Notes under the pieces: generated by a model
Told to the model about the DNA's origin: nothing
What the model saw: only the letters and a program-made list of their open reading frames with translations
Database searches by the model: none
Position numbers and translations under genes: made by a program
Source: a bacterium
Lineage (GTDB): Bacteria; Patescibacteriota; Minisyncoccia; UBA6257; 02-FULL-45-10c
NCBI GenBank assembly: GCA_021786945.1
Contig: JAJYMK010000001.1
Location: 794 to 64,793 of the forward strand
Reading direction: 5' to 3'
DNA length: 64,000 nucleotides
Shown: positions 4,044 through 24,475 of the stretch, in pieces
How the letters are laid out: each line of letters starts with the position of its first letter
How positions within the stretch are numbered: the first letter of the stretch is position 1

Positions 4044-5099
4044 CTATTTGAACAAATTCTTAACTAATTTATTCAAGCTATGCTTATTTATAACAATGTC
4101 TCTAAGCTTCTTATTAGGCACCTCTCTCTCTTTTATATTTAGAGATAATATATTTTTTAATTGAAAAGCTATGTTTTTATCACTTTCTCTTTCCAAAACA
4201 AATTCTTTATCAATTTCATCATTTAGACTTTTATTAGCAACCAAAACCAAAGACTCACAAGCCATGGCTTCAAATATGGTTTTATCCATACTCCCGCTAG
4301 GGGTTAAATTAACATAAAGTTCGTATTTATTATACAAATCAACAGCTTCTTCGTGTTTAACAGAACCAATAAACTCAACTTTATTTTCTAAATTATATTC
4401 TTTAACTTTTAATTTTAGGCCCTCATAATATCCAATATCTTTAGGAAGCGGATCGCCAACAATGAGAGCTTTAAAAGTTATACCATCTTTATCTAATAAA
4501 TTTAAAGCTTTAATAAACAAATCCGGCTTTTTTATCGGAGAAATTCTGCCTAAAAATAAAATAGAATTTGGTGTTTTCTTGATTTCCGGCTTCCTTCTAA
4601 AAAAATCTGTATCTATACCTACTGGCATAATCTCGGTTTTCTTAAATCTTGCCGTATAAGAATATTTTGAAGTGCAAAAAACTCTATCGGAAACCCAAAC
4701 CGCAAAATTAGTCAAAAAAGATCCGTAGGGATGGTTTCTCCATAACATTATTTTTTTACCTAATAATTTCCATAATTTCCAACCCAAAAGCGCATACTCC
4801 TGATTCATATGCACAAAAACGGCATCATAATTTTTCCTTTCCTGCCAAATATATTTATAGAATCTATATACAAATAAAAACTTGCTAAAAATATGCGAAT
4901 AATACGAATGGCTACGAATATATTCTTCTTTACCAAGAGACAAAACCGTAACATTGGATGGCAAACTATATTCCCCCTTTTCTAAGCAAACAACCGTCAC
5001 TTTTTCGCAGTTTTTAGAAAACTCTTCCGTCCACCTATGAAAGAAGCCAAGAATTGGATCGTTTATGTCTATTTTCTGCGTTACTATTAATAATTTCAT
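4044..5099 (-). CDS. GT4 glycosyltransferase
   Basis: C-terminal FEAMACESLVLVANKS motif (E..EAMA....V). 351 aa. Confidence 0.75.
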   Translation of the reverse strand: MKLLIVTQKIDINDPILGFFHRWTEEFSKNCEKVTVVCLEKGEYSLPSNVTVLSLGKEEYIRSHSYYSHIFSKFLFVYRFYKYIWQERKNYDAVFVHMNQEYALLGWKLWKLLGKKIMLWRNHPYGSFLTNFAVWVSDRVFCTSKYSYTARFKKTEIMPVGIDTDFFRRKPEIKKTPNSILFLGRISPIKKPDLFIKALNLLDKDGITFKALIVGDPLPKDIGYYEGLKLKVKEYNLENKVEFIGSVKHEEAVDLYNKYELYVNLTPSGSMDKTIFEAMACESLVLVANKSLNDEIDKEFVLERESDKNIAFQLKNILSLNIKEREVPNKKLRDIVINKHSLNKLVKNLFK

Positions 5100-5147
5100 G
5101 TATATGATACTAATCTACAAATTTTATAAGAGTGCTACGAATAAAAA

Positions 5148-7125: not shown

Positions 7126-7131
7126 AAAAAA

Positions 7132-8220: not shown

Positions 8221-8303
8221 AATTTAAAATTTAATATTTAAGATTTAAGAATGATTTAATGATTTAATGATTTAAGGATTTAATAATTTAATGATTAAAA
8301 GAG

Positions 8304-8684
8304 CTATTTTTTAAAATCAGAATGTCGTAATAAGAATTTTCTAAAGTTAGATAATTTTATAGAGATATTTTCTAAATTATTATATAGCTCATCAAATTGC
8401 TTTTTATCTATATACTTATTATCCAGCAAAATATACAAAATACAACGCACTTCTCCGGCCGAACCCTTTGATATATTAATGAAATTAGCAAATTCTTTAT
8501 TAGAGCTCCTCTCAAAACCCTCGGCTATATTCAGCATTATTGAATAAGCCGATCTTTTTAATTGATCCGTCAGAGAAAAATCCTTTCGCAATTTCGCACT
8601 ACTCTCTATTAATTTATAAATTTTGTTTACTAGCACTCTTGATTCCATCCATATAGGTAAATCTTCAAATTTAGAAATATTCAT
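8304..8684 (-). CDS. Four-helix-bundle protein (23S rRNA intervening-sequence protein family).
   Basis: MLNIAEGFERSSNKEFANFINISKGSAGEV matches the NIAEG..R....F..FL.IA.GS..E signature of the TIGR02436-type four-helix-bundle family. 126 aa. Confidence 0.75.
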   Translation of the reverse strand: MNISKFEDLPIWMESRVLVNKIYKLIESSAKLRKDFSLTDQLKRSAYSIMLNIAEGFERSSNKEFANFINISKGSAGEVRCILYILLDNKYIDKKQFDELYNNLENISIKLSNFRKFLLRHSDFKK

Positions 8685-8729
8685 GAGAAAAATATTTAAT
8701 ATTTAAGATTAAAAAATAAAATTAAGGGT

Positions 8730-9869
8730 TTATAAACTATAAATTCGTTCTGTTTCGGAGACCATTTTTTCTAAGCTGAATTTATCTTTTACAATTTCCT
8801 TAGCTTTTCGGGAAAGCTCTTTGGCTATTTCTTTATTTTCTATTAATCCACCGATAGCTCGTGCTAAAGCTTCAGGATTTTTCTGGGAAACCATAAGTCC
8901 ATTTTCGTGGTTTTTAATCATTTCCGGTATACCCCCGGCTTCAGTTACCACAATAGGAAGCTCTGCGGCCATAGCTTCCAAAAGAATATAAGGAAGACCC
9001 TCCTTAATCGAGGACATAGCAAAAACATCGAAAGCTTTTAGATATTGGGCGTCGTTGCCGCTCGGAGAAATAATAAAGAATCGGTCAGATAATTTAAGCT
9101 TTAAAATTAAAGATTTAAGATTACTTAATTCTAGGCCGTCGCCAATTATAAAAAAGTATGTGTTTTTTACAAATTTTGCCGCCCCTATAAATGTTTCGTA
9201 ATTTTTTTCTTTGACCAATCTGCCTACCGACCCAACCCACTGATATTTCTCTTCTAATTTTGAAACTTGTGGTGAGTTTACCGAACCATCATTAAATATT
9301 TTAATCATTAAATCTTGTCTTGATTCTTTTTTTGATAAAAACTTCATATCCGCATTTATTCCGTTATGTATAGTGGAAAGTTTTTCTTCTGGGCAAATAT
9401 CATATTCAAGCGCTAAGTTGTAGTCGTATTCGGACACGCAAATTATTTTATCCTGAAATTTTGCCGCAAATTTATGCAATAAAACATAAAACTGACGGAC
9501 AAACTTGCTAATTTCGTTTGTCGGATTAAATACCCAACCATGCGCAGTAAATACCACCCTTATTTTTTTATTAAAATTTTTATTGTATATAGCAGCGGCA
9601 AGAGATCCTAAAACTCCGGCCTTAGAACTATTCAAATGTATAATATCCGGATTTTCTTTCTTGAAAACATTTACCAATTCAAATATAGCCATCCAGTCAT
9701 TGAAAAACAAAAACCACGGATAGGTTTTATTTGAAAGCCATCTCACCTCCCTATCTCCATATAAAACTCGGGAATCGAATTTATTTTTATCCAAATTATC
9801 CGCTAAATCTTTAACGTACTTCTGCGCCCCGCCTATGCCTGATTTAGTTAAAATATAAAGAATCTTCAT
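8730..9869 (-). CDS. GT4 glycosyltransferase
   Basis: EGLPYILLEAMAAELPIVVTEAGGIPEMI. 379 aa. Confidence 0.8.
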   Translation of the reverse strand: MKILYILTKSGIGGAQKYVKDLADNLDKNKFDSRVLYGDREVRWLSNKTYPWFLFFNDWMAIFELVNVFKKENPDIIHLNSSKAGVLGSLAAAIYNKNFNKKIRVVFTAHGWVFNPTNEISKFVRQFYVLLHKFAAKFQDKIICVSEYDYNLALEYDICPEEKLSTIHNGINADMKFLSKKESRQDLMIKIFNDGSVNSPQVSKLEEKYQWVGSVGRLVKEKNYETFIGAAKFVKNTYFFIIGDGLELSNLKSLILKLKLSDRFFIISPSGNDAQYLKAFDVFAMSSIKEGLPYILLEAMAAELPIVVTEAGGIPEMIKNHENGLMVSQKNPEALARAIGGLIENKEIAKELSRKAKEIVKDKFSLEKMVSETERIYSL

Positions 9870-9931
9870 AATACAAATAAAATACTAATATTATACGGAT
9901 TTTACGAATAACTACGAATATTAATTAAGAA

Positions 9932-11119
9932 TTATGATTTTAATGAATTAAAAATTCTGTCCATTTTTTGAGCTACAACATCCCAAGAATAATGAGAAAT
10001 TACTAACTCCGCGGCATTTTTGACTACTTTGTCCCTCAAATCTTTATGGCTTAATATGTAGCTAATTTTTTCTGCCAAATCTTCAGGATCTTCAGGGTTC
10101 ATCAATAAACCAGTCTGACAATTAAATAAGAAATCCGTTATTCCTCCAATCGGGGTCCCGATAACTGGAACTTCCGCAGCCATAGCTTCCAGAAAGGAAT
10201 TACCTAGACCCTCCGATCGCGAAGCACGTACAAAAACATCGGAAATCCTGAAATAAATCGGCAAATCTTTTTGCGGAATTTGGCCCAAAAAGATAATTTC
10301 CCTATCCAGTTTTAATTTTTTTATTTTTAATTTTAACTTATTTAATTCCGGCCCATCACCGATAATTAATGCTTTTATATTGGGCTTTATTTCTTTTACT
10401 TTAGCTATAGCCTCAATCAAAATATCTACTCCGTTTTTATAAACTAGGCGAGAAGTGGTTAAAACCACATACTCATCCGTAATTCCAAGATTATCCCTTA
10501 ATAATTTGAGTTCTGATTCTTTGTATTTTGTTTCAAACAAATCTATATCAACTCCATTAGGTACTACTTCAATTGGACATTCGGCGCCTCTTTTTATTGC
10601 AAAGTCGGCCAAATACTTACTGATTGACTGTATAAAATTAGCTTTTTGAATTATTTTTTTTCCAAACCAACCCACTAGCCCAAATTTTCCCAAAATTAAA
10701 TATTTTTCACTGTCACCTTCCTGCAAAGTGAGAAGCAACGGGACTGAAGGATGATTAAGTTTAAACAATAGCGCGGCAATTCCGCCATAGGAAGCCATTA
10801 AAGCCCAAACAGCATCAAACCTTTTATATTTATGAATATTTTCAGCTTCTTGCCAGGCTTTGTATATATATGAAATTTTTCCCCAAATACGGCCATAATA
10901 TTTTTTAGTTCCGGATTTTCCTATTTTAATATCTCTACCAAAACCAACACGAATAATATCAAAGTTTTCACCTCTTTCCAAAGAAAGCCAGTTTCGGTTG
11001 AATTTATAGGTAAAAATATTGAAATTTTTACCTTTTAGGCGACTTACCATCTCTCTGGCGGCTATTTCCGCTCCGCCCTCAAAGGGACTGTAAGCAAGAG
11101 TAAATAAAGCAATATTCAT
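9932..11119 (-). CDS. GT4 glycosyltransferase
   Basis: EGLGNSFLEAMAAEVPVIGTPIGGITDFL. 395 aa. Its upstream 35 nt are nearly identical to those of the preceding GT4 gene. Confidence 0.8.
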   Translation of the reverse strand: MNIALFTLAYSPFEGGAEIAAREMVSRLKGKNFNIFTYKFNRNWLSLERGENFDIIRVGFGRDIKIGKSGTKKYYGRIWGKISYIYKAWQEAENIHKYKRFDAVWALMASYGGIAALLFKLNHPSVPLLLTLQEGDSEKYLILGKFGLVGWFGKKIIQKANFIQSISKYLADFAIKRGAECPIEVVPNGVDIDLFETKYKESELKLLRDNLGITDEYVVLTTSRLVYKNGVDILIEAIAKVKEIKPNIKALIIGDGPELNKLKLKIKKLKLDREIIFLGQIPQKDLPIYFRISDVFVRASRSEGLGNSFLEAMAAEVPVIGTPIGGITDFLFNCQTGLLMNPEDPEDLAEKISYILSHKDLRDKVVKNAAELVISHYSWDVVAQKMDRIFNSLKS

Positions 11120-11304
11120 GGATACAAATAAAATACTAATATTATACGAGTTTTAACGAATGGATACGAATCACTACGATGCGAATTAATATGTAATAGC
11201 TATATTATAACAAAATACTATACAAATAGGTTACGAATTTATGAATACGAATAAGGACAAATGTGAGTTAATAAATAACTAAAAAGATTTAAAGATATAA
11301 AAAC

Positions 11305-11330
11305 AAAAACTCCCCTTTCGGGGAGTTTTT
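11305..11330. terminator. Bidirectional rho-independent terminator (AAAAACTCCCC-TTTC-GGGGAGTTTTT).
   Basis: Perfect 11-bp stem, 4-nt loop, A/T runs on both sides, immediately 3' of the surface-protein gene. Confidence 0.8.
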
Positions 11331-11367
11331 GCAGTCATTCCGAGTTTTAAAGTCGGAGCTCAAGAGA

Positions 11368-14300
11368 CTAAGGAACCAAGGTGATATTGCTCCATGCCGG
11401 CATTGTAGTAATGGCCGGGTTATGAGCGATACCTTTAGACACTCCATCAGACCAGCTGTATTCAGGCATAGAAACGTTGCCACTAATTGTATTAGTGGAT
11501 GTAACTTTCTGAGCTGAAGTAAGCGGAGTCATGTAGAAGGAAATGTTCTTGGAGCTTCCAGCGGTGATCACAGGAACATTGGTCAAAAGATCAATGGCCT
11601 TAGAAACACCAAAGGTAACTGTAGTTGTGCCCAATGTCTTACCGTTATCGTTATCGTAAACGGTTAGAGTCGTTGAGGTCGCTGTTGAGGTAGCGTTGTA
11701 AACATTCAACAAGATAGTTGTTGAAGCAAGAGTCAAATCCTGCAATGCAGAAGGAGAGCTATTGCTAAATACAACTTTACCAATAAGTGTACCGATGCTG
11801 TCAGTTGTACCAACGGTAGTTCCGCTAGTAGCGACGCTCAATACGCCCTTATAGATAGTGAATGTTGCACCACTGTCAACATGCGAAGTCAATGTATTGG
11901 CCGCATTAGAAGCAGCGCCAGAATACATTGCGCTAAGGAATCCTGCATCAACTGTATCTCCAGAAACAGCATTGTTAATTCCGTTAATATCAGCAACCAT
12001 GCTAAGAGTGACATTGCCGTTCTGAGGAACAACTAATGCACCCGAAGGAATGGTGAAGGTTAACGCAGTGCTTGTTCCAGCCAAACCGCTGATAGTAGAA
12101 CCAACTTGAGTGGTTCCATTCATCAACTTAATGTTGGCAAGATCAGCAGCAACCGTGGAAGTAGCGATAACAGATACACTGGTAACACTGAGACCTTCGT
12201 TGTTGTCAGCAGATAACTTGAAGCTGGCAAGCTTGAGACCAGAAAGGCCCATAGCCACCTGTTGTGAAACGGGAGAATCCGGAGACAAAGCAGCAGACAA
12301 AGTACCAGCAGCATTAACAGCTACTGTTTGTCCAGCTGGAGTGCCAGACAAAGTCTTGCTGGAGTTAGATGACATACCGGTTGCAGAAGCTCCTGTTAAG
12401 GAAACAACTGTAGCGGCAGACGAAGTAGCTCCGCTAATGGTATCAGCATAAACATCAACTATAGCGCTACCGCCAGCAGCAATAGCTATCGGGCTGGAAA
12501 CGCTAAAGGTGTAAGGCTGATCATTAGCCAAGGTTGTCTGAGTATAGCCAATCTGAGTGCTACCATTCAAAACTTTCAAGTTTTGGAAGTGGTTAGCAAC
12601 GTTAGAAGCGGCTGTTTTAAGAGTAACGCTAATAACGTTAGCTCCTTCAGCAGCACCGGCAGACAAAGAGAATGATCCGATCTTTACGCTCTGAGCGCCA
12701 GATACTGTGATAATGTTACCAACAGCATTGTTGACGGTCGCAGAGAAAGAGGCGGAGCTAGCGCTCAATGAATTACCAGACTGAGCCGGAACTGTAACGC
12801 TGGCCAAAGAAGTGTAGCCCTGACCGGAGCCAGAAACCAAATCACCTTCAATAGTACCAGTGTAACCAGAGATTACATCAGCTTTGATAGACAAAACTCT
12901 TGTCTGACCAGCAGGAATGATGTAATTCAAATTGGTTAAATCAGTTTGCTTTGCAGCATCGGAAGTAGATCCCGAAGAAGCCAATGTTCCAATTTGAACA
13001 CCCTGATCATCAACTAACTTCAAATTGTTCCAAACTGTATTCTCAGCTTGAGAACTGTAAGAAATCTTGTATGACAAGGCTGTTATGCGGACAGCTTCAC
13101 CAGCAGCGGCGAAGTCGAAGCTAGCCAATGTTTGATTGGTTGAGCCAGGAACAACGTAGTTAGCTGGAGAATTGGCATCCTTGGAAACTGTAAGTGTTCC
13201 CTGAGAAACGGAAACTTGAGATCCGTTAATTGGGAAGGTTCCGGTGGATGAAGCGCCGACATTGTAAGACATATCTGTGCTTACGACATCATAAGAGCGC
13301 TGGATTGTTAAAGTGAAGTTACGATTAACGCCACCAACAACATCAGCATAAACCATCAAATTGACGGTTTGACCGGAAGGAATCTGCAAAGGATTGCTGG
13401 ACAAGTCAAAGACAACTGTACCATCAGCATTCAAAGAAAGAGCGGTGGCGCCAACTTGGACGGAACCGTTCATTAATTTGATGTTAGCCAAATCGGTAGA
13501 AGCATTGATTGTACCAGTTTCGGTAAGCTTGACGGATTTTACGCTTACAGCGCTATTATTAGCCTGCATGGAAAATTCACCAGCCAAGAAATTGGTAGAA
13601 CCAGCATTTACCTGACCGCCAGTAACGATATCGTTAAGAGCGAGTGTAGCTAAAGCCGGATTGGTGACGGAAACAGCAGTCATAACATTGCTGAGCATCG
13701 GGAAGTTGCCCGATACTGTAGCGCTGGCGGTAATATCGGAAGCAGCATTAACATTCCAAGAATATGTATGGGATGTAGTAACACTAGAGAGAACGTCAGC
13801 GGCAACGGTAATAACTTTTGATGTACCAGCTTTTACTGTGAAGATACCAGCTGGAAGAGAGAAGGAAGCCTTACCATTGGCTAAGCCAAGGTTTGTGGCC
13901 AAAACCTTACTTCCATCCATCAAGTATACATTCTGAATGTCGTTATCGCTGGAGAGACCTCCGCGGTAAACATTCATAGCGGTAACTGTAACATCGCTAG
14001 CACCAGCGGACATATTCAAGTTCAAGAAAGGAACTTGGGTAGCGCCAGCTGGAAAATTACCAGAAACAGGATTGGAAGAAGCAACGCTTACAGACAATCC
14101 AGATCCGGACGGGGTTACTACAGTTCCGGTGGAACCAGTGGAAGTACCAGTGGAACCAGTGGAAGCAGAACCCATAGCAGACAATTTGGCTCTTGTTTTA
14201 GCGCCAAAGTATCCAGCGGCCGGGGAAATTCCCTGAGCAGCTTGGAATTTAGCGAGAGCGGCCTTAGTAGCGTTACCAAAATAAGTGGTCTCGTTACCGG

Positions 14301-14631
14301 CGGAACCAGCTCCGCTAGTGGCTACAGCATAACCGGAAGCATTCAAGAATTTCTGCAAATCCATAACTGCAGCTCCTTTACTACCAACGGTGAGGTCGCT
14401 GGAAGACAAAAGGGAAGCTGGAACAGCGCTAGAAGAAGCAGAAGATCCAGAAGTGCTCAATTGGCTTTGCATAGCCGTAATTTGTGCCATCAAAGCAGCA
14501 ATCTGAGCCTGCAACTCTTCAACGGTAGCACCGTGAACAGAAGACGGGATCAAAGAAGCAGCTCCTGAGAGCGACAAAACTGTAGCTATTGAAACTACAG
14601 AAATTGAAACTTTTGTAATTAATTTACTCAT
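11368..14631 (-). CDS. Large secreted Ser/Thr/Ala/Gly-rich surface protein with N-terminal signal peptide, coiled-coil segment, peptidoglycan-binding (PG_binding_1-like) module and long internally repetitive beta-rich region. S-layer/fibril-like candidate.
   Basis: 1087 aa. Signal peptide MSKLITKVSISVVSIATVLSLSGAASLIPSSVHGA. PG-binding-like DLQKFLNASGYAVA...YFGNATKAALAKFQAAQGI. Repeated module ...ANIKLMNG(S/T)(V/T)QVG(A/S)T... occurs at least twice. GC visibly higher than in neighbouring genes, consistent with the Ala/Gly/Ser/Thr bias. Confidence 0.8.
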   Translation of the reverse strand: MSKLITKVSISVVSIATVLSLSGAASLIPSSVHGATVEELQAQIAALMAQITAMQSQLSTSGSSASSSAVPASLLSSSDLTVGSKGAAVMDLQKFLNASGYAVATSGAGSAGNETTYFGNATKAALAKFQAAQGISPAAGYFGAKTRAKLSAMGSASTGSTGTSTGSTGTVVTPSGSGLSVSVASSNPVSGNFPAGATQVPFLNLNMSAGASDVTVTAMNVYRGGLSSDNDIQNVYLMDGSKVLATNLGLANGKASFSLPAGIFTVKAGTSKVITVAADVLSSVTTSHTYSWNVNAASDITASATVSGNFPMLSNVMTAVSVTNPALATLALNDIVTGGQVNAGSTNFLAGEFSMQANNSAVSVKSVKLTETGTINASTDLANIKLMNGSVQVGATALSLNADGTVVFDLSSNPLQIPSGQTVNLMVYADVVGGVNRNFTLTIQRSYDVVSTDMSYNVGASSTGTFPINGSQVSVSQGTLTVSKDANSPANYVVPGSTNQTLASFDFAAAGEAVRITALSYKISYSSQAENTVWNNLKLVDDQGVQIGTLASSGSTSDAAKQTDLTNLNYIIPAGQTRVLSIKADVISGYTGTIEGDLVSGSGQGYTSLASVTVPAQSGNSLSASSASFSATVNNAVGNIITVSGAQSVKIGSFSLSAGAAEGANVISVTLKTAASNVANHFQNLKVLNGSTQIGYTQTTLANDQPYTFSVSSPIAIAAGGSAIVDVYADTISGATSSAATVVSLTGASATGMSSNSSKTLSGTPAGQTVAVNAAGTLSAALSPDSPVSQQVAMGLSGLKLASFKLSADNNEGLSVTSVSVIATSTVAADLANIKLMNGTTQVGSTISGLAGTSTALTFTIPSGALVVPQNGNVTLSMVADINGINNAVSGDTVDAGFLSAMYSGAASNAANTLTSHVDSGATFTIYKGVLSVATSGTTVGTTDSIGTLIGKVVFSNSSPSALQDLTLASTTILLNVYNATSTATSTTLTVYDNDNGKTLGTTTVTFGVSKAIDLLTNVPVITAGSSKNISFYMTPLTSAQKVTSTNTISGNVSMPEYSWSDGVSKGIAHNPAITTMPAWSNITLVP

Positions 14632-14966
14632 GTTTATTTTTAATTTGATCTTTTCTTAAACGAATTTCAGTCGACGAAATTTTTTGTGTTTAAGAAAAAA
14701 TTATCTTTCTAATTTTCTTTTCTTTCTAAAAAAATTATTTTTACGCTACTCTCTTCATACCCGTAGGCACAAGAGATCGACCTTGCGTAGTTTCGAAATA
14801 ACTTTCTCGGTATCTTTACCCGTACGTTTATAAAAAACGCATGTGGGTTTGCACCAACATCCAAGATGGATATTTGACACCCCCACACCGATTGCAACAA
14901 TTCATGAAATACTGTGAGGATATTTCATTACAGCAATAGGTGTGGGGGAAAAAATTTATTAACCTA

Positions 14967-14999
14967 TAAAAGAAAAGTCTCGCTGTTTAGAGCGAGACT
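14967..14999 (-). terminator. Rho-independent terminator for the upstream minus-strand gene (AGTCTCGCT-CTAAAC-AGCGAGACT + U-run on minus).
   Basis: 9-bp perfect stem. The run AAAAGAAAA on plus is a U-run on the minus strand. It sits about 270 nt downstream of the 15274..16113 gene stop. Confidence 0.65.
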
Positions 15000-15273
15000 G
15001 AATACACCAAATATGAAAACCTAAAGCTGCTTTGCTTTAAGTTTTAATTTGGAAGATTCAGCCTCACACTAAATCTTCTGGTTTATATAATAATTATATA
15101 TTTATTTTTTCAAATTCGCAAAACTTTGAAATTGTGAATAATTTATACAACTTTAAAGCCTTACAAAACTTATTAAATATAACGAACTTCGACCTAATTT
15201 ATTACACTTGATTTACGAATAATATGGTACCAATCTGCGAATGTATGCGAATGATCTAAACCAAGAAAAAGAG

Positions 15274-16113
15274 CTAATTCTTTTTGGGTATATAACTGGT
15301 ACCCGGACCGCTGTTACCCACCCTTTCTATCACCCCCTGATCACACAACTTTTGGAGATCATATCTTAAAGTTCTTTCACTTACTCCCGGAAACTGACTA
15401 ACCATATCTTTTACCGACACTCTTCCAACTTGCCTAACCCTGTCTGCGATTAAATTTTGCCGAATTGCTGAATTGCCGCCGCCGCTAACTGCCCCATTTT
15501 CCGAAATTATCTTTTTTATAACCGGCTTACTAATAAATGATTCTTGTTCTGATTTTTTTATGGATTCTTCACCGTCGGAATAAGCTTTTGCAACAATTTC
15601 TTTTTCTTTATCTATTGTAGCTATTTGGGTTGAAATTGCAGAGGTCGCTTCTTTTGCCGAATTAATTTCTTTTAGAGAATCTTTAATTGCCGAATTACTC
15701 TGACTGCTGCCCTGTTCTATTACTGCAGGCGGCATTGAAAAAATAGATTCAAGATTTAAATGCTCTATTGCAAAAGGATTTGCAATTGCCGAATTGCCGA
15801 ATTCTTTAATTGCCGAATTAAAAACATCTAATTCCTTCAATAATATATTTGCGTTTACGGTTTCAATTTCATACAAAGTATGACCAATCCTAACCAACAC
15901 ATCTAAAGCAGAAATACTTTTAAAGGTCCTGATAAGAGAAACTTTGTCGGCAGCGTCTTCGGTAGCAACGGCCACATTTTCCAAAAACTCGAAACTTAAC
16001 CTCTCTATTCTATTTCTAAGCTCCTCCCTTTTTATATAAAAAGACACCCTATTGAGGGCGTATGAAATTTCACGAGCTTTTTTCTTTAAAAACTCAGGAG
16101 TTATGGAAGACAT
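15274..16113 (-). CDS. Hypothetical protein with C-terminal DeoR-type winged-HTH DNA-binding domain (putative transcriptional regulator).
   Basis: C-terminus RQNLIADRVRQVGRVSVKDMVSQFPGVSERTLRYDLQKLCDQGVIERVGNSGPG resembles the DeoR N-terminal HTH (..V.V.EL...F.VSE.TIRRDL..L...G.L.R.HGGA). N-terminal 200 aa helical, no recognisable family. Confidence 0.5.
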   Translation of the reverse strand: MSSITPEFLKKKAREISYALNRVSFYIKREELRNRIERLSFEFLENVAVATEDAADKVSLIRTFKSISALDVLVRIGHTLYEIETVNANILLKELDVFNSAIKEFGNSAIANPFAIEHLNLESIFSMPPAVIEQGSSQSNSAIKDSLKEINSAKEATSAISTQIATIDKEKEIVAKAYSDGEESIKKSEQESFISKPVIKKIISENGAVSGGGNSAIRQNLIADRVRQVGRVSVKDMVSQFPGVSERTLRYDLQKLCDQGVIERVGNSGPGTSYIPKKN

Positions 16114-16358
16114 TTTAAATACGAATATTTAGACAAATAATTACGAATGAATACGAATTTCAGAATTAAGAGGTTTACGGAGACTGTCGGATTGGGCGGA
16201 TCTACAAACAACAGAGATAATAATACTCGAAATCCGGCAAAAAATCAAGTGGCGAATACTAAATATTAAACCAACATTAACGAATGTATACGAATTAATA
16301 TATACAAATTAATAAAAGATAAAAAACAAATAAAAGATACAATTTGAACTCGTAAATA

Positions 16359-16742
16359 TTATTTATCTATTCTTATAACCCTAATAGGTTTCAAATATTT
16401 ACTTCTAAAATTAACTAGGATTCCCAATTTTAAAAAAGCTTGTTGAAGATAATTTTGTATTTGCCTAAAATTATCGCTAGTTATAAACCGCTTGGATTTT
16501 AATTCTAAAACTATTTTTTCATCCACTATAAAATCCAAAATATTTCCAGAGTCGCCAATAGCCACCTCTCTTTTATAGGGTAATTTTATTTCTTTAAATT
16601 TTTTCTCAATCAGATCCCCATATTGTTTTTCTCTGGAATAAGATCCTAACTCATTGTGTACAGCAAAAAGAATTCCGGTAATCGTATAAGAAAGTTCTGG
16701 ATAAATAATTTTATCGCTCAATATTTTTTTATTCGTAGTCAT
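16359..16742 (-). CDS. GxxExxY-family protein (PD-(D/E)xK nuclease-like fold).
   Basis: LSYTITGILFAVHNELGSYSREKQYGDLIEKKF...ILDFIVDEKIVLELKSKRFITSDNFRQIQNYLQQAFLKLGILVNF parallels the GxxExxY family pattern (..VH.ELGPG..E.VYE.AL..EL...G......DF.V...I.VELKA.....H..Q...YL...GL..GLLINF). 127 aa. Confidence 0.7.
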   Translation of the reverse strand: MTTNKKILSDKIIYPELSYTITGILFAVHNELGSYSREKQYGDLIEKKFKEIKLPYKREVAIGDSGNILDFIVDEKIVLELKSKRFITSDNFRQIQNYLQQAFLKLGILVNFRSKYLKPIRVIRIDK

Positions 16743-16775
16743 TCGTAATAAGTATACAAAATTTAATTCGTATAC

Positions 16776-17519
16776 CTATATCTTCCACTTAGTAAAAAAG
16801 AAAATGACGAAAAACGATAAAACCAAAACAATTAAATTTTTTATTATTAATTTTTTGGTTACCAAACCTCTAAAATGATTTACCAGAAAATCCATACCAA
16901 GATAAAAAATTACCATTGCCAAGGTTGCCGAATTTATAAAACCAAACGGCAACAAAGAAATGACCCAAACAATTTGCAACATAACAAATGCGAAAATTAA
17001 TGCGGCGAGATTATAACGCTTTGGAAAAGTTGCATAAAGCCAAAAGAGCCACTCGCGGACCAACAAAAACAAAACTAAAAAAATCGACAGAAATTTTACC
17101 GGAAAAAGAAAATATTTATCGGCTAGAAAATAAGACAAAAAAACCGAATAAACCAAAAAAAGATTTTTTATGTAATTCCATTCAAAACGATGGGTAAAAG
17201 CAAATTCCTTTATACCCAAAGAAATATAGAATAAAAACGAAAAGAAAATTACCGATAACAGTAAAAATTCGGGGTGGCTAAGCTGACTGATCCCATAAAG
17301 AGAAGAAGCCAAAAGAATTAGAAATGAAGAAAAGTTTTCTAGATTGTTTTGGGTATGATTGCGGAAATATAAAATAAAACAGGCTAAAAGAAAAACAAAA
17401 ATAGGCAGAGTCATGAAATCCGACGTCCTTACCCACAATAAAAGCCCGGCAAATATAAAACTCTTAAGAATTAATCGCAATTGAACGGTTTTCAAAACCG
17501 ATTTTAATTTTTGCACCAT
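16776..17519 (-). CDS. Polytopic membrane protein, hypothetical (real start probably the internal Met MTLPIF at 17417, which removes the overlap with clpB).
   Basis: About 7 hydrophobic helices. The annotated start overlaps the clpB 3' end by 56 nt. Starting at the internal Met avoids this. Confidence 0.45.
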
Positions 17520-20148
17520 TTTTTAATTCTCCTTTAATCATTTTATCGGCCAATTTATCAACTATGGTCTTTTGGATGAGCCTCTTTAAATGTCTGGCTC
17601 CATATTCAGGATTGAAACCATTTTCAACCAAATATTCCAAGGCATCTTTGTCTATATTTATTTTAAAGCCCTTATTTTCCATTTTTTTCTTAATAATATC
17701 TACCTGCAACTCTACAATTTTTCTGATATCTTCCTTTTTAAGAGGATTAAATACCACAATTTCGTCTATTCTATTCAAAAACTCCGGTTTAAATCTCTCC
17801 CTAAGAGCTTCCTGAATCTTATCTTTGAACTCCCCTTCCTTGGCTTCAGCTTCGGAATCAGCGGCAAAGCCAAGCGTAGAAAGCTGCCTCATATATGGAG
17901 CGCCTACGTTGGAAGTCATAATAATAATAGTATTTTTGAAGTTAACTACTCTGCCCTTACTGTCGGTTAAACGGCCGTTATCCAAAACCTGAAGCAGAAT
18001 ATTGAATACTTCGGGGTGAGCTTTCTCGATTTCATCGAAAAGAATAAGGCTATATGGCTTATGCCTGATAATTTCGGTTAATTGTCCACCTTCATCATAA
18101 CCAACATAGCCCGGAGGCGAACCAATGAGTTTGGAGGTAGAATGCTTTTCCATATATTCAGACATATCCACCCTGATTAAAGCCTTTTCGTCGTTGAACA
18201 TGAATTCCGCCAAAGCTTTTGCAAGCTCGGTTTTACCGACACCAGTGGGACCAAGGAACATAAATGAGCCAAGCGGCCTATTTTCATCGGAAAGTCCGGC
18301 TCTGGCACGCCTTAAAGCGCTGGCCACTGCTACAATTCCTTCATTTTGGCCGACCACCCTGCTTTCTAAAGCCTCTTCAATTTTTACCAACTTGGTACTT
18401 TCGGATTCCAACATTTTGGTAACCGGAATACCCGTCCACCTAGCCACAACACTGGCTACATCTTCTTCGTCCACCATTTCTTTTATGAATCTATCGGCGG
18501 TTTTCTTTATTTTGGACTTTCCGGACTTAGAGCTTTCCGTATCTTTCAATAAGTATTTCTTTTCGAAGGCCTTGTATTCTTTTTCTGCCTGAGGGAGCTC
18601 GCCGTAAATAATCTTGGCCACTCTTTCCAAATTAGCGTCACGCTCGGCCATTTCGGCTTCACGTTTCAAATCGTCTATTCTTTTTCTAAGCTTGTTATGA
18701 TCCTCAAAAAGCATTTTTTCCGCACGCCATTTTCCAGAAAGGGCCTCATTTTCTTCTTTGAATTTGGCGATTTCTTTATTAATGGCTTTCATTCTGGCTT
18801 TACTTGCAGCCGAACCCTCTTTCTGCAAAGCGGACTTTTCTATTTCTAATTGAGTAATTTTTCTCCTGACGTGATCTATTTCCTGAGGCAAACTTTCACT
18901 TTCCAATCTTCTGGCGGCGGCAGCCTCATCTATAAGATCCACGGCTTTATCCGGCAAAAATCTGTCGGAAATATATCTAGCAGACAAATTTACCGCGGCA
19001 ATAATAGCCTCGTCACTGATTCTCAAGCCATGATGGAGTTCGTATTTTTCTTTAAGACCACGCAAAATAGTAATGCTATCTTCAATAGTTGGCTCTTCAA
19101 CCAAAATAGGCTGGAAACGTCTTTCCAGAGCCGGATCTTTTTCAATATGCTTCTGAAATTCTTTTAAAGTTGTGGCGCCTATAGCATGCAGCTCGCCCCT
19201 GGCCAAAGCCGGCTTCAATAAATTTGAAGCATCCATAGCACCTTCGGCCGAACCCGCACCAACTATCGTATGAATTTCATCTATAAACAAAATCAATCTG
19301 CCGCTGGCATTTTGAATTTCCTTTATAAAAGCCTTCAATCTGTCTTCAAATTCACCACGGAACTTTGTACCCGCAATCAACGAACCAATATCTAATGCAA
19401 TGATTTCTTTGTCTTTAAGCGGTTCAGGCACATCTCCCGAAACTATTCTTTGGGCCAAACCTTCTACAACAGCGGTTTTACCAACACCCGGCTCACCTAT
19501 CAAAATAGGATTATTTTTTGTACGTCTGGAAAGAACCTGGATAATTCTTCTAAGCTCCTCTTCCCTGCCAATAACCGGATCAAGCTTACCCTGCTTAGCT
19601 TTGTCGGTAAGGTTTACCGCATATTTTTCCAAGACTTGAAATTTACTTTCCGGAGTTTCATCAACTATTCTGGTTGATCCCCTGAGCTGGGCAAGAACCT
19701 TAATTGCGCCTTCATAATTTACTCCGGCTTTCTGCAAAACCGTCTGGGCTTCGGACGGAGTCCATAAAATACCAACTAAAAGATGCTCGCAAGAAACAAA
19801 TTCATCTTTTTGGGCCAATGCAAATTTAGCGGCTTTTTCCAAAATCTGAATAAGCTCCTGAGAAAGATAAATCTGACTGATACTGGCTGCAGCCGGCGCA
19901 GAAGAAAGCATTTTGGGAAGTTTATTTAATTCACCCTCGATACTTTTATCCAAAAGATTAAGATTTACTCCGTTTTTGGTTAAAATGGGCTGGACCAAAG
20001 AACTGCTATCCGAAATTAAAGCAGACAACAAATGAAGCGCCTTGAATTCGCTGTGATTTCTAGAAGCGGCCAATTCCTGGCCATTTTGCAAAGCTTCTTG
20101 AGCTTTTATGGTAAAACGATTGTTGAAACCGTTGTTATTGTTTTTCAT
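17464..20148 (-). CDS. clpB: ATP-dependent chaperone ClpB (class 1 AAA+ disaggregase).
   Basis: 894 aa. Two Walker A motifs ([16 protein letters not shown]). Clp-N domain. Long middle coiled-coil between NBD1 and NBD2, which is ClpB-specific. No ClpP-binding IGF loop seen. Confidence 0.95.
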
Positions 20149-20258
20149 GGATTTTATACAAATTTACAAATAATAAAGGGTTACGAATGAATACGAATAT
20201 AAATACAGTGATTTAAAATACTAAAACCCTCTTTTATTATTTTATCATAATAAAAAAA

Positions 20259-20285
20259 TTAGCACTCTGTCAATTAGAGTGCTAA
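20259..20285. promoter_or_regulatory. CIRCE operator (HrcA binding site) TTAGCACTC-N9-GAGTGCTAA, perfect match, about 110 nt upstream of clpB.
   Basis: Sequence read directly: ttagcactc tgtcaatta gagtgctaa. An extra right half-site with identical spacer flank (tcaattagagtgctaat) lies at 20367-20383. A 10-bp inverted repeat cgacaagctc/gagcttgtcg (20291-20300 / 20352-20361) sits between them. Confidence 0.85.
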
Positions 20286-20407
20286 TAGTTCGACAAGCTC
20301 ACTATAAAATACAGGGCTAAAAATTTATATAAAAATAGCTATTCTCGTCCCGAGCTTGTCGAGGGATCAATTAGAGTGCTAATTTAATATTTTTGCCTAA
20401 AACAATT

Positions 20408-20653
20408 TTACAATTTATTGATATCGGTATTAAGGCTGTTCATTTCGGTATTTAAATCACCCAAATTCATGGAATCTAAACCCTGCTGAACATCGGCGGA
20501 AATATTTTCCGTAGCAGCTCCCCCACTAACACCTTCGGTGCCCATAGGAGCCTTAGAGCCCATACTCATATAAATTGCAATAGCAACAACAACTAGAACT
20601 ACAGCCAATACAATTAACCAAACCATCTTCTTAGAATTTTTTTGTGGTTCCAT
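20408..20653 (-). CDS. Small single-pass membrane protein, hypothetical.
   Basis: 81 aa. TM helix WLIVLAVVLVVVAIAIYM. Gly/Ala-rich exposed tail. Confidence 0.4.
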   Translation of the reverse strand: MEPQKNSKKMVWLIVLAVVLVVVAIAIYMSMGSKAPMGTEGVSGGAATENISADVQQGLDSMNLGDLNTEMNSLNTDINKL

Positions 20654-20665
20654 AATTTATTGTAA

Positions 20666-21565
20666 TTATTTAATTTTATTGTACTCAATCAAAGCCTTGG
20701 TAACTGCGGAATGAGCAACCTGAATTAAATCTTTAACAGAACTCAAGTCTTTATTAAGAGCTGTTCTTGTGGCCGAAACATCGGCTTTAAGATTGGCTTC
20801 GGTGGTAACAGTTATTGTGTATGTTTTCTGAGCCTGAGTTTCAATAGCTGATTTTGCGGCCGAAATCGCATTGTTAGCATCGCTGATGGCGCTATTTACG
20901 GCGCTCAAATCTTTTCCGGTAGAAGAAGCTGCAACAGCACTAACACCGGAAACTATTTTTGCCAAAAAAGAATCCAATTGCGAGGTGGCATTGGTCCATC
21001 TGTCAATAAAACCACTGTTAATTTTGGCTATATTCTGATCTACATTTTCTACAGCGGCTACTTTTGTTTGATTTTTTATAGCCTGAAGTTTTGTCTGCAA
21101 TTCCTGTCTGGCTTGAGCCTCTTTTGTCTGAGCTTCAGCCCGTAAAGAATCTACATTTGACCTAAAAGCATCTCTTTCTTCCTGCATCTTCTGAACAAGC
21201 GATTTTACGGCCTGCGAAGAAGAGGCTGTACCGGAAGCAACCATAGTTCTGATTTCATTTCTAATTTCTTCTCTTGATTGCATTAATTTTTCCTGCTCAA
21301 CCTTAATTTGATTTTTAAGTTCAGTCTGAACTCCTTGGTTGGCTGTTTTAACATCCTCCCTTAATTGAGTTCTTACGGGCTGAGAAGAGGTGGCTCCCAA
21401 AAGACCAGTGCCGGGCTCATGAATTTGAGCTTGGGTCTGCACTCTTTCCATTTCTCCGTTTTGTGCCGGAGCGGCGCCAGATGCTCCATTGCCCATCATT
21501 TGGGCGTTTGCAACCAAACCCAATGACATAGTAAGGGCGGTTAAACCAACAATAATTTTTTTCAT
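20666..21565 (-). CDS. Secreted coiled-coil protein, hypothetical (signal peptide; Gln/Ala/Glu-rich heptad regions).
   Basis: 299 aa. Signal peptide MKKIIVGLTALTMSLGLVANA. Long helical low-complexity segments. Confidence 0.5.
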   Translation of the reverse strand: MKKIIVGLTALTMSLGLVANAQMMGNGASGAAPAQNGEMERVQTQAQIHEPGTGLLGATSSQPVRTQLREDVKTANQGVQTELKNQIKVEQEKLMQSREEIRNEIRTMVASGTASSSQAVKSLVQKMQEERDAFRSNVDSLRAEAQTKEAQARQELQTKLQAIKNQTKVAAVENVDQNIAKINSGFIDRWTNATSQLDSFLAKIVSGVSAVAASSTGKDLSAVNSAISDANNAISAAKSAIETQAQKTYTITVTTEANLKADVSATRTALNKDLSSVKDLIQVAHSAVTKALIEYNKIK

Positions 21566-21643
21566 TTTTATTTATGTTTTAATTTTATTTATAATAAACC
21601 TGCTTACATCGCCTTAAACAGGCATAAATTTATTATACATCTT

Positions 21644-22894
21644 TTAAATATTTCTTTCCTCCAGGGTAACATCCAATTTTATTTCCTTTCCATTTCTTAA
21701 AACGGTTAAAGAAATTTTATCCCCTACCTGATATTTCTGAATCAAGGAGGATAAGGAATTATTTTCATCTATTTTTACCCCATCAACCTCGGTAATGATA
21801 TCTTCGGCTTGCAGTCCTGATTTTTCCGCAGGAGAATTCTTTACGACAGCGGGACCATCCTGATTTCCGCGGACTAAAGCTCCTCGCTTTACCGATAATT
21901 TTTCTTTTTCGGACAATTGATCGTCTAGCGCCAAATATCTAACACCCAAATAAGGAGTCAAAATCTTGCCACTCTTTTTTACCGATTCAATATCATTTTT
22001 TGCTTTATTTATAGGAATCGCAAAACCAACACTCTGAGCCCCAGAAACAATAGCGGTATTCATACCTATTACTTCGCCCTTCAGATTCAAAAGCGGGCCG
22101 CCGGAATTTCCCGGATTGATAGCGGCATCAGTCTGAATCAAACCATCAAGATTTTCCGCGCTCCCCAACCCATCAGAAGCCGTAATTTTTCTGTATAAGC
22201 CCGAAATAACTCCGGTAGAAACCGTATTCCTAAATTCACCCAAAGCGTTGCCTATAGCTATAGCCGTCTGACCAAGTTTCAAAGAATCGGAATCGCCCAA
22301 TTTTAACGGCTTCAAACCATTAACAGAAATTTTCAATACGGCGAGATCCTGAACGCTGTCTCTGGCTAAAACCTCTGCATCGTATTTTTTACCATCATTA
22401 GTCAAAACCGTATATTCAGCTTTTTCATCCGAAACAACATGTTTGTTGGTAAGGATAAGCCCGTCTTCCGAAATGACAAATCCACTACCACCGCCAACCT
22501 CCTGTTTCTTTGTTCCTTTTTGGCAGGGCTGAGTAAAATTTAATCCTCCGCCGAAAAATTGCTGAAATTCTTCCGGTAAATTTTCATAAGGGTTATAAGG
22601 GCACTGCTCAATAACCGGCAAATCTTTGGAAACAATAATAGAAACCACCGACGGAGAAGCTTCTTCGACTGCTTTTATGACCGCCTGCTCATGAGCATCT
22701 TCGGAATCATACATAACGACAGCTTTCGGAGCTTCTATTTTTGTCTCAACCGAAGATTTATTCAAAAACGGCAAATATTTTTGAAGATAATCGGTAAAGC
22801 CCGCCTGAACCACCGACAGATTAGATAAATAAGCTAAGCTAACCAAAACTAAGGCGACCATTAATAAAGAAAAAAACTCTTTCTTATTATTCAT
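21644..22894 (-). CDS. htrA: HtrA/DegP-family periplasmic serine endoprotease with C-terminal PDZ domain.
   Basis: Catalytic Ser in GNSGGPLLNLKGEVIGMNTA, His in LTNKHVV, Asp in DLAVLKI. PDZ at the C-terminus. N-terminal membrane anchor. Confidence 0.9.
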   Translation of the reverse strand: MNNKKEFFSLLMVALVLVSLAYLSNLSVVQAGFTDYLQKYLPFLNKSSVETKIEAPKAVVMYDSEDAHEQAVIKAVEEASPSVVSIIVSKDLPVIEQCPYNPYENLPEEFQQFFGGGLNFTQPCQKGTKKQEVGGGSGFVISEDGLILTNKHVVSDEKAEYTVLTNDGKKYDAEVLARDSVQDLAVLKISVNGLKPLKLGDSDSLKLGQTAIAIGNALGEFRNTVSTGVISGLYRKITASDGLGSAENLDGLIQTDAAINPGNSGGPLLNLKGEVIGMNTAIVSGAQSVGFAIPINKAKNDIESVKKSGKILTPYLGVRYLALDDQLSEKEKLSVKRGALVRGNQDGPAVVKNSPAEKSGLQAEDIITEVDGVKIDENNSLSSLIQKYQVGDKISLTVLRNGKEIKLDVTLEERNI

Positions 22895-23025
22895 AGTAGA
22901 AATTAATTATAAAAATTTAATTTTTAATAATGTAAAATCGACTTTATTTAATTATTTTAACCTATTTTATATATACGAACTGAATATACAAATTGTTGCA
23001 TACTCAAAAACATAAAAAGGCCAAA

Positions 23026-24219: not shown

Positions 24220-24475
24220 ATGTTTAAATTAGCAATTTTTCTCTATAATAATAGGCGCAACTCCTTGATCTTTGGCGTATAGATAACCCAAACCAAAAGA
24301 CAACGAAGTAATAACAAAAAATATCCCGAATAGAATGACTTCTCTCTTTTTCAAAAATTCCGATATTTTAACCGCCAATTCCTTTAATTTATTTGACATA
24401 ACCGCGTTTATTCTACTATAATATACAAATAATTAAAACAGAATGATGGGCTAGGAGCCTAAGTTTTAAATAAAT

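Follow-up and report, generated by a model that had tools for sequence, protein, structure and literature searches.

Directional arrays of an ATTNGYA heptamer at gene starts in Paceibacterota: a candidate protein-bound promoter element

CtsR, the class III heat-shock repressor of Firmicutes, has the consensus site A/GGTCAAA-NAN-A/GGTCAAA. The boxes of the OmpR/PhoB family (such as the pho box and those of CpxR, CiaR, and WalR) frequently serve htrA and envelope genes. Correia elements in Neisseria, as well as repetitive extragenic palindromic (REP) sequences and bacterial interspersed mosaic elements (BIMEs), are short intergenic inverted-repeat modules with long hairpins and possible outward promoters. 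Bacteria of the candidate phyla radiation (CPR, or Patescibacteria) have few recognizable regulators and make little use of Shine-Dalgarno (SD) sequences. Here, we describe a heptamer, ATTNGYA, that forms arrays just upstream of genes in a 64,000-nucleotide stretch of a Patescibacteria genome (contig JAJYMK010000001.1, positions 794 to 64,793; hereafter, the window) and in metagenome contigs from Paceibacterota. The arrays share a grammar, an orientation, and a position relative to genes; they are spread over unrelated genes and genomes; and they are partly conserved in a sister species. We class the array among direct-repeat cis-regulatory arrays. We will compare it to the sites of BldC, whose protomers bind head to tail along direct repeats of variable number, one per 9-bp site (AATTxxxxC), with 2:1 and 4:1 stoichiometry (PMC5859096). 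BldC's sites are on promoters and are directional, and the optimised site is AATTCGGAC-AATTCGGAC (PMC5859096). In the literature on the heptamer and on promoter motifs of CPR bacteria or Parcubacteria, we found no description of an array like ours.

The window contains 25 exact copies of TACGAAT, which, for the genes that run leftward, reads ATTCGTA on the coding strand. Dinucleotide-preserving shuffles of the window give 9.36 ± 3.07 copies, and 0 of 100 shuffles reached 25. Pairs of the form TACGAAT-N3-TACGAAT (with up to 2 mismatches) occur 13 times, versus 0.68 ± 0.76 in the shuffles. Non-coding DNA makes up 11.6% of the window and holds 10 of these 13 pairs (binomial p = 8.9e-8). These counts bear out the observation in an initial annotation of the window that the heptamer is repeated in many promoter regions. 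The initial annotation also described a separate conserved box, ATACAAAT, next to the start codon. Read on the coding strand, the box is ATTTGTA; it differs from the heptamer at one base and closes the same array as its final copy. (ATTTGTA by itself is not over-represented: the window has 25 copies, and from base composition we estimate about 23.) If copies with one mismatch are counted, each site in the window has 3-6 co-oriented copies that end 2-17 nt before the ATG. The strict 10-bp phasing that had been reported holds only for the first two copies; the later gaps vary (10,17,8; 10,8,14; 20,8; 10,9; or 10,20,11).

When we scanned metagenome contigs from the Joint Genome Institute (JGI) for ATTCGTA-N3-ATTCGTA-N8-32-ATTYGTA, at least 120 contigs matched. 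Proteins from these contigs cluster with Candidatus Paceibacterota, Parcubacteria CG1_02_44_31, and Brennerbacteria. In 678 kb of contigs, we found 139 arrays, of which 58 were not used to select the contigs. The genes right after the arrays include those for ribosomal proteins (S7, S11, S21, L11, L20, L22, L24, L31, and L36); RpoA, seryl-tRNA synthetase (SerRS), polynucleotide phosphorylase (PNPase), DnaK, topoisomerase I, and ParB; and a PilB-like ATPase, PBP2, RsmH, Fpg, TpiA, and Ndk. Since arrays precede ribosomal, RpoA, SerRS, and other housekeeping genes, they do not form a dedicated stress regulon, and the idea of a heat-shock or envelope regulon is not supported, given the ribosomal-protein, RpoA, SerRS, PNPase, TopA, and ParB genes. 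The initial annotation had also offered a choice between the site of a global regulator and a lineage-specific promoter or UP element. Here it is partly supported: arrays before many unrelated housekeeping genes in at least 120 Paceibacterota contigs favor a lineage-specific, promoter-associated element.

The arrays follow a common grammar. The consensus unit is ATTNGYA, mostly ATTCGTA, with any base at position 4. There are typically 3-6 copies per array (up to 10), all co-oriented. Across the 139 arrays, the gaps between adjacent copies were 7 bp (n = 27), 8 bp (n = 55), 9 bp (n = 26), 10 bp (n = 39), or 11 bp (n = 12), and the gap from each copy to the next but one was 17-19 bp in 96 of 101 cases, which averages out to ~9 bp per copy. 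If adjacent gaps were independent, then by our calculation from the gap counts, about 55% of these longer gaps would be 17-19 bp. In other words, two copies take up ~18 bp, and the gaps between neighbors alternate accordingly (10/8, 9/9, or 10/7). We distinguished three types of arrays. Type A has gaps of 10, 8/9, 9/10, and 8, has the 3' end ATTCGTA(t/g)ATT(A/G)GTAT(c/g)tttat, and lies 5-17 nt from the ATG. Type B has gaps of 8, 10, and 7, ends with ATTCGTAATTCGTAg(g/t)g, and lies 4-9 nt from the ATG. In type C, the gaps are 10, 20, and 8, one arm of a GC hairpin replaces the third copy, and the other arm follows the last copy. The hairpin arms come in three compensatory variants, with two heptamers in the loop (in one sub-lineage). 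Arrays in the window obey the same rules as those in the contigs (gaps of 10,17,8 at clpB; 20,8 at 5108-5142; and 10,8,14 at 15214-15252). Overall, the last copy lies -1 to 66 nt from the ATG; the distance is 20-66 nt for some genes, and some of those genes have their own SD (in contig L120).

The arrays are oriented with respect to genes. Among the arrays that were not used as seeds, 28 have an open reading frame (ORF) of at least 60 amino acids that starts within 60 nt downstream, versus 8 in a control that used the opposite direction. Roughly half of the arrays are in back-to-back inverted modules (39 of them), which are mirror-symmetric. Where genes were called on both sides of the module, 23 of 30 modules lie between co-directional genes. 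The copies within a genome (contigs L155 and L164, and the window) share just the heptamers, and the spacer bases, the copy number, and the flanks differ. Heptamers that stay invariant within a genome while the spacer bases differ (as in L155) suggest selection on the heptamers, as does the use of the same word and grammar across contigs that range from 30% to 56% GC.

In the window, arrays are limited to 4.9-23 kb. The genes for aminoacyl-tRNA synthetase, IF-2, RbfA, Hsp20, def, and fmt, at 24-43 kb, lack arrays. All of the window's arrays are on the minus strand, except for one that we mention below. Several are upstream of genes for GT4-family glycosyltransferases. Upstream of the GT4 gene at 4044-5099 (ATG at 5099), the array at 5108..5142 reads ATTCGTA (5136), a gap of 20, ATTTGTA (5116), g, ATTAGTA (5108), and T, which is the terminal unit of type A, 8 nt before the ATG. 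The array at 9872..9919 fills the 62-nt gap upstream of the GT4 gene at 8730-9869. Its copies are ATTCGTA (9913), ATTCGTA (9903), ATCCGTA (~9894), ATTAGTA (9883), and ATTTGTA (9872), at offsets of 0, 10, 19, 30, and 41, followed by tt and the ATG at offset 50; a TATAAT hexamer lies 17 nt past the TTCGTA of the first copy. Upstream of the GT4 gene at 9932-11119, the array at 11123..11186 has ATTCGCA (11180), CATCGTA, ATTCGTA (11165), ATTCGTT (11155), ACTCGTA (11145), ATTAGTA (11134), and ATTTGTA (11123), then tcc before the ATG; an extended -10 (TGtTATAAT) is farther upstream, near 11200. The same intergenic region has a second array at 11221..11252, with ATTCGTA (11246), a gap of 14, ATTCGTA (11232), a gap of 11, and ATTTGTA (11221). 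It lies ~50 nt (51 by coordinates) past a terminator hairpin (11303-11332) and has that TGtTATAAT box just downstream. Another array, at 4869..4919, is within the GT4 ORF at 4044-5099 (codons 61-66), and reads ATTCGTA (4913-4919), gcc, ATTCGTA (4903-4909), tt, ATTCGCA (4894-4900), with ATTTGTA at 4869-4875.

Three more arrays are near the gene for a DeoR-like protein with a helix-turn-helix (HTH) domain (15274..16113, minus strand). In its leader, the array at 16120..16158 has ATTCGTA (16152), ATTCGTA (16142), ATTTGTC (16132), and ATTCGTA (16120); tttaaa separates the last copy from the ATG at 16113. This array is ~55-95 nt downstream of a promoter at 16248..16220 (TTGATT-17-TATTAT) that is conserved in two related genomes, L081 and L083. 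Upstream of the promoter's -35 is the array at 16279..16309, with ATTTGTA (16303), ATTCGTA (16289), and ATTCGTT (16279). Just 3' of the gene, the array at 15214..15252 reads ATTCGCA (15246), tac, ATTCGCA (15236), g, ATTGGTA (15228), a gap of 14, and ATTCGTA (15214), and is ~95 nt upstream of a promoter-like sequence, TTGCGA-17-TATAAT (15121..15093). The array at 16731..16772 is on the plus strand, with ATTCGTA (16731), gtc, ATTCGTA (16741), and ATTCGTA (16766). It lies between the gene for a 247-aa membrane protein and an ORF of the GxxExxY family, whose start codon falls within the heptamer pair. At clpB, the array at 20157..20198 reads ATTCGTA (20192), ttc, ATTCGTA (20182), a gap of 17, ATTTGTA (20165), a, ATTTGTA (20157), and then taaaatcc and the ATG at 20148. 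Upstream of htrA, there are just degenerate copies at 22974..22993: ATTTGTA (22987) and GTTCGTA (22974), with TAAAAT 17 nt past the TTTGTA.

Many of these positions are in the initial annotation, and we confirmed those at 9903/9913, 5136, 16120/16142/16152, and 20182/20192, the TGCGAAT pair at 15236/15246, and the degenerate copy at 22974. Other sets needed qualification or correction. The partner of 11165 is a one-mismatch copy (AACGAAT) at 11155, not 11156; 16289 is an exact copy and 16279 is a one-mismatch copy; the copies at 11232 and 11246 are both present, with a spacing of 14 bp instead of 10 bp; and the copies at 16731, 16741, and 16766 are in the opposite orientation, with ATTCGTA on the plus strand. 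Overlooked until now were the perfect pair and third copy at 4894-4919, which fall outside the range that the initial annotation gave, and, near the DeoR-like gene, ATTCGTA at 15214 and ATTGGTA at 15228.

Our favored reading, which we hold tentatively, is that the array is a directional DNA element, embedded in the promoter, that is bound cooperatively and head to tail by a sequence-specific protein, much as BldC or Xis bind. There would be one protomer per copy (~9 bp, or 18 bp per dimer). The array extends over the positions of the -35, the spacer, and the -10, so its occupancy would set initiation at the promoter. (Action on DNA, binding by a protein filament, and the sign of the regulation are parts of this reading that we infer.) In the window, arrays would have been added onto pre-existing units: to clpB, behind a promoter that overlaps a CIRCE element (controlling inverted repeat of chaperone expression); to the DeoR-like gene, behind its conserved promoter; and to the GT4 cluster. 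If so, these units gained from the arrays either an additional promoter or an additional layer of control.

The main reason that we rate DNA above RNA is that the mirror-image partners, and arrays that lie upstream of promoters, can be accounted for only by a DNA element. Three arrays in the window (16279-16309, 11221-11252, and 15214-15252) are upstream of canonical promoters, so they would not be transcribed from those promoters. In contig L183, one module directly follows a terminator (a GC hairpin and T6), so the left half of the module cannot be in the mRNA. (This was the single strict case of an intrinsic terminator directly upstream of an array.) The array ~50 nt past the window's terminator at 11303-11332, and an array in L119 that precedes a 23S rRNA exon instead of an ORF, point the same way. 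Canonical promoters upstream of arrays are not enriched (10 of 128, versus 6.3% in control windows), in a test with low power. Some arrays also contain promoter-like spacings. The window has TTCGTA-N17/18-TATAAT at 9872-9919 and 11123-11171, and TTCGTA-N16-TATTAT at clpB, and our promoter scan does not score these sites as sigma70-like. The 8-bp junction of type A, GTA-n-ATT, forms a -10-like TAnATT with TTCGTA 17 nt upstream; type B junctions read TAATTC.

Several observations count against binding of promoter DNA by a dedicated protein. The window's arrays at clpB, the DeoR-like gene, and the GT4 gene that ends at 11119 are downstream of good canonical promoters, in predicted 5' leaders. In contig L155, a type B array directly follows the promoter (TTGACC-17-TATATT) of the gene at 9377-9880. 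Also in L155, arrays are found between ribosomal-protein genes that appear to be co-transcribed (S13|S11 and S4|RpoA), which would fit a role in the mRNA equally well. So would the scarcity of SD-like sequences, which we found for 1 of 44 genes with arrays and for 42 of 260 other genes. Two rRNA promoters are canonical and array-free, as are 16 of the 17 tRNA genes that we examined (12 of 13 on array contigs and 4 of 4 in the window). With gaps of 7 and 8 bp, neighboring copies do not face the same side of the helix. The ATG follows type B arrays too closely for the standard distance from a -10 to the start site, unless the mRNAs are nearly leaderless. Finally, we found no binder: the sole BldC- or Xis-like family that we came across, a 62-aa HTH_17 protein, is on contigs without arrays.

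We tried the 62-aa HTH_17 protein (L158, 2579-2767) as the binder and rejected it, as it is found in mobile-element contexts, on array-free contigs (near position 10001 in L210-L214; five contigs, 93 kb). Its best matches in PDB are 4J2N and 6AMA. Among the 120 clusters listed (of 273), the protein is 71-98% identical, mostly 80% or above. The gene has its own conserved upstream sequence, TGACA-N5-TGACA, with TGACAAAATATGACA and then TATAAT. A jackhmmer search with this protein found no homologue in the window or in the other loci that we compared.

The alternative that survives best, which we consider unlikely, is that the array is an RNA element in the 5' untranslated region: the ribosome or an RNA-binding protein would recognize AUUCGUA repeats in leader or intercistronic RNA, to start or control the translation of mRNAs that lack an SD. 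The arrays that have a canonical promoter before them and the ATG after them (in the window, those of clpB, the DeoR-like gene, and the GT4 gene, and one in L155), the intercistronic arrays of the S13-S11-S4-RpoA operon, the lack of SD-like motifs, and the absence of arrays from rRNA and most tRNA genes would all be explained. Arrays that end 4-17 nt from the ATG, the flexible spacing of adjacent copies, and the sub-lineage's hairpin, with its compensatory changes and two heptamers in the loop, also fit an RNA. This alternative does not fit the arrays that are upstream of promoters or are reversed beside the stop codons of co-directional genes, the module that follows a terminator in L183, or the arrays that are 20-66 nt from the ATG, some with an SD of their own (L120). 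Most arrays do not have a canonical promoter upstream, and one array is not before an ORF at all: in L119 (2619-2665), a GC hairpin and a type A array lie within an insertion in the 23S rRNA gene, just before the next exon. Base-pairing of the array with rRNA is disfavored by the free position 4 of the heptamer. Nor is the array a Shine-Dalgarno sequence, as it is multi-copy, 30-60 nt long, at a variable distance from the ATG, and has a free position. We also considered pairing with an altered anti-Shine-Dalgarno, and set it aside: the window uses GGAGG at some genes, and the distances to the ATG do not fit. In Rfam, the window matched only tRNAs, and 20 array contigs matched only rRNA, tRNA, and a group I intron.

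It is also quite improbable that the array is simply a core promoter, read without a separate regulator by an RNA polymerase with a variant or alternative sigma factor. TTCGTA would be the -35, and the GTA-n-ATT junction, or GTAT and the next bases, would be the -10. The array would then be a set of overlapping promoters, staggered by ~10 bp, in which the 17-19 bp between alternate copies give spacers of 15-17 nt. The TTCGTA-N16-18-TATAAT/TATTAT sites in the window (with N17 and N18 before TATAAT, and N16 before TATTAT) and the terminal consensus ATTCGTA(t/g)ATTnGTAT(c/g)tt fit this model. So do the short distances to the ATG and the few SD motifs, which would imply nearly leaderless mRNAs, and the different promoter class of the stable-RNA genes: on array contigs, rRNA and tRNA genes use canonical TTGACT-N17-TATAAT promoters. 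The same canonical promoters are a difficulty, however, since TTGACx-N17-TATAAT works in the same genomes, which implies an ordinary primary sigma factor. Furthermore, a single heptamer would need to satisfy the readers of the -35, the spacer, and the -10; the type B junction, TAATTC, lacks the T at -7; and the mirror-image partners beside co-directional genes have no gene to drive.

Another explanation, which we think is very improbable, is that the inverted arrays are small palindromic mobile elements (like miniature inverted-repeat transposable elements, REP, or Correia), with incidental effects on genes. The 39 inverted modules, most of them between co-directional genes, are suggestive. 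Arrays also occur in insertions in 23S rRNA genes: besides the one in L119, a 394-nt insertion in L188 (7528-7921, at about model position 2620) is opened by inverted arrays. In the window, inverted arrays (16279-16309 and 16731-16772) are on both sides of the inserted GxxExxY gene, and the in-ORF array is at a strain-specific recombination breakpoint. But a genome's copies share just their heptamers, not their spacers, copy numbers, or flanks, and we saw no target-site duplications (by eye, without a systematic search) and no terminal repeats beyond the heptamers. A mobile element also would not explain a word and a grammar that are kept across such a range of GC content, or the non-random orientation and distance to start codons.

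An explanation along the lines of the initial annotation, a local stress or envelope operator (CtsR- or OmpR/PhoB-like) that is bound by the adjacent, autoregulating DeoR-like protein, is scarcely credible: although the window's arrays lie at 4.9-23 kb before the GT4 genes, clpB, htrA, and the HTH gene, and are densest around the HTH gene, the targets elsewhere are housekeeping genes, the window's Hsp20 gene has no array, there is no response-regulator domain in the 40 proteins that we scanned, and heptamers are missing upstream of the HTH gene's orthologues in L081 (75% identical protein) and L083, with the protein also encoded in synteny with clpB in 45 of 80 loci that lack arrays. In short, many relatives without arrays have the DeoR-like protein, and we find no support for it as the binder.

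We then compared the window to its relatives. In 80 clpB loci from species-representative genomes of Paceibacterota in GTDB (1.38 Mb in total), there is not one perfect ATTCGTA-N3-ATTCGTA pair. Arrays of at least 3 copies occur at 0.5 per 100 kb in these loci, versus 3.1 per 100 kb in the window. Deep conservation of the array at clpB is thus rejected; it is kept only in the sister species, L081, which has the same gene order. There, the clpB leader has an array at the same place (ATTCGCAgttATTCGTT...ATTTGTAtatATG), and a perfect pair precedes one GT4 gene. L081 has no heptamers before the HTH gene or htrA. Conservation at orthologous promoters, on which the initial annotation had made its proposal depend beforehand, is therefore found at clpB and one GT4 gene and is absent at the DeoR-like gene and htrA. 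L083, L001, and L002 have no arrays; they have a long hairpin in the clpB leader and TTTAAAT-type repeats in the leader of the HTH gene. The strains L086 and L087 have the window's arrays, except for the in-ORF array (4894-4919). At that position, L087 has TTAAAT repeats, and a breakpoint in the similarity between the strains falls there.

Such TTAAAT(C)n repeats, with a spacing of 7-8 bp, also occur directly before start codons in the window (8221-8303 and 8685-8729) and in L081, L083, and L087. In the relatives and in L087, they stand where the window has ATTCGTA arrays. The glycosyltransferase island varies between strains (4044-8700 in the window versus 5657-8149 in L087), with another set of GT4 genes and a GIY-YIG gene in place of the genes for a 23S_rRNA_IVP-family protein and UDP-glucose dehydrogenase. 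Another site, ATTTGTAtATTATAGTAGAAT (24424-24445 on the minus strand, between rpmA and a small ORF before iscS), is conserved in four genomes (the window, L081, L083, and L002), and L002's version reads as a type A junction (ATTCGTAnATTnGTA, 2615-2629).

The best relatives of the window's clpB are in metagenome-assembled genomes (86% and 85% identical), followed by Harrisonbacteria-like genomes (74%); these matches put the window in the Patescibacteria/Paceibacterota. Many relatives share the gene order iscS, htrA, a 299-aa protein, clpB, the 247-aa membrane protein, the HTH protein, and a PG_binding surface protein. The GxxExxY gene (TIGR04256; 16359-16742) is inserted between the membrane-protein and HTH genes, and is absent there in L081, L083, L001, and L002. 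Upstream of clpB (20244..20285, minus strand), there is a perfect CIRCE (20259-20285, TTAGCACTC-N9-GAGTGCTAA) along with a promoter, TTGACA-18-TATGAT, whose -35 is in the loop of the CIRCE. This near-consensus promoter is the region's strongest sigma70-like promoter, and the array (gaps of 10,17,8) lies at about +39 to +80 relative to it, within the last 50 nt before the ATG. The layout of the CIRCE and the promoter is conserved in L001-L005, L081, and L083. Judging from these sequences, the CIRCE-overlapping promoter is the ancestral promoter of clpB, and given the conserved perfect CIRCE, clpB, rather than groEL or dnaK, looks to be controlled by HrcA in this clade. It looks as if clpB has classical CIRCE control, with the heptamers as a separate layer, in common with the glycosyltransferase island, and not as a heat-shock operator.

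The DeoR-like protein has 279 amino acids and an unusual build: its N-terminal domain is helical, and a low-complexity linker connects this to an HTH_DeoR domain (a DeoR-type winged HTH) at the C-terminus. HTH_DeoR (residues 218-265) is the sole Pfam match above the curated cut-off; a weak match to HTH_12 overlaps it (residues 244-269; 19.9 bits versus a cut-off of 21.4 bits). We found no DeoRC domain with Pfam, just scores far under the cut-offs with NCBIfam, and no relative in PDB by sequence. BLASTP found no similarity between the N-terminal domain and the window's 23S_rRNA_IVP protein. By its predicted domains, this is not a canonical DeoR regulator, which would have an N-terminal HTH_DeoR and a C-terminal DeoRC sensor. 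The protein is syntenic with clpB in 45 of the 80 Paceibacterota loci, and may regulate the neighborhood of clpB in this clade specifically.

We also noticed some other features of the window and the contigs. In the 642-nt gap between the HTH and surface-protein genes (14966-15121, minus strand), a hairpin that resembles a terminator (14999..14976) lies downstream of the promoter-like TTGCGA-17-TATAAT (15121..15093). The two could delimit a small RNA of ~110 nt, which has no match in Rfam at the gathering threshold. The surface-protein gene has a long leader, with a ~75-nt segment, gggtaaagatacc...ggtcgatctcttgtgcctacggg...gaagagagtag (about 14700-14790 on the minus strand), that is conserved in L081 (upstream of 11522) and may be a structured leader RNA. 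In the region 43221-64000, an integrated element starts at a tRNA-Ser (43221-43310). It encodes an HTH_36 protein, a large serine recombinase (43256-44830), and XRE-type repressors (44877-45599 and 45756-45962). The window and a related strain, L088, have a 548-aa protein in common (60521-62167 in the window, with no Pfam match), past which L088 has SU10-type capsid and tail genes. Among the contigs, the RpoA of the array-rich L155 (1886-2698) has 271 amino acids and no match to Pfam's alpha-CTD. In L079 (1-60), the 3' end of the 16S rRNA is GGATCAATTAAAC, without the CCTCC core of the anti-Shine-Dalgarno.

More broadly, it is possible, though doubtful, that a large branch of Paceibacteria runs most of its protein-coding genes from a second class of promoters, made of phased ATTNGYA arrays, while rRNA and tRNA genes keep TTGACA/TATAAT. 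If this is true, then the arrays would be read either by a specialised holoenzyme of RNA polymerase or by a dedicated DNA-binding protein that forms filaments. The signals for transcribing stable RNAs and mRNAs would be split across the genome, and the mRNAs would be nearly leaderless and SD-free. To our knowledge, such a genome-wide split between stable-RNA and mRNA promoters has not been described for bacteria. Either way, the array gives a handle on gene expression in the CPR, as it precedes genes for ribosomal proteins, replication, chaperones, and the cell envelope. The starts of transcription units can be predicted from it, it could be used as a bait sequence for the factor that reads it, and it offers candidate promoter parts for CPR genetics. 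The one set of start sites from the CPR that we found is for Nanosynbacter (PMC12641261).

How does the array compare to known systems? Like Correia or REP elements, it forms short inverted modules between genes, in either orientation. Unlike them, just the heptamers are conserved instead of the whole element, there is a strict tie to start codons, and the range of GC content is 30-56%. As in OmpR/PhoB boxes, the direct repeats are spaced by roughly a turn of the helix and overlap the -35 or take its place, at a fixed distance from the -10; at 9872-9919 and 11123-11171 in the window, the pair is 7-8 nt upstream of TATAAT. However, OmpR/PhoB boxes have 2 or sometimes 4 copies with a strict spacing of 10-11 bp, while our arrays have 3-10 copies, spacings of 7-11 bp, and a double period of 18 bp, and they serve housekeeping genes across many genomes. 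Neither Response_reg nor Trans_reg_C matched any of the 40 window proteins that we scanned. The likeness to CtsR operators that the initial annotation had pointed out holds for the first two copies: at clpB, ATTCGTA-ttc-ATTCGTA has the layout of heptad, 3 bp, and heptad, before a clp gene. It does not extend to the sequence, which is unrelated, to the full grammar, with more copies and alternating gaps, or to the targets, which are mostly not heat-shock genes. Also unlike in the CtsR system, clpB keeps a CIRCE/HrcA-type promoter here, and CtsR has no match among the 40 scanned proteins. Compared to BldC, whose regulon is developmental, the array's targets are ribosomal and housekeeping genes, and the heptamer is far more strictly conserved than BldC's sites are. 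Since no binder was found, the likeness to BldC and Xis is a statement about how the array would work, and not about which family of proteins binds it. As with those small winged-helix proteins, the repeats run head to tail in variable number, start with ATT-CG, fit two copies into 17-19 bp, and would sit on promoters.

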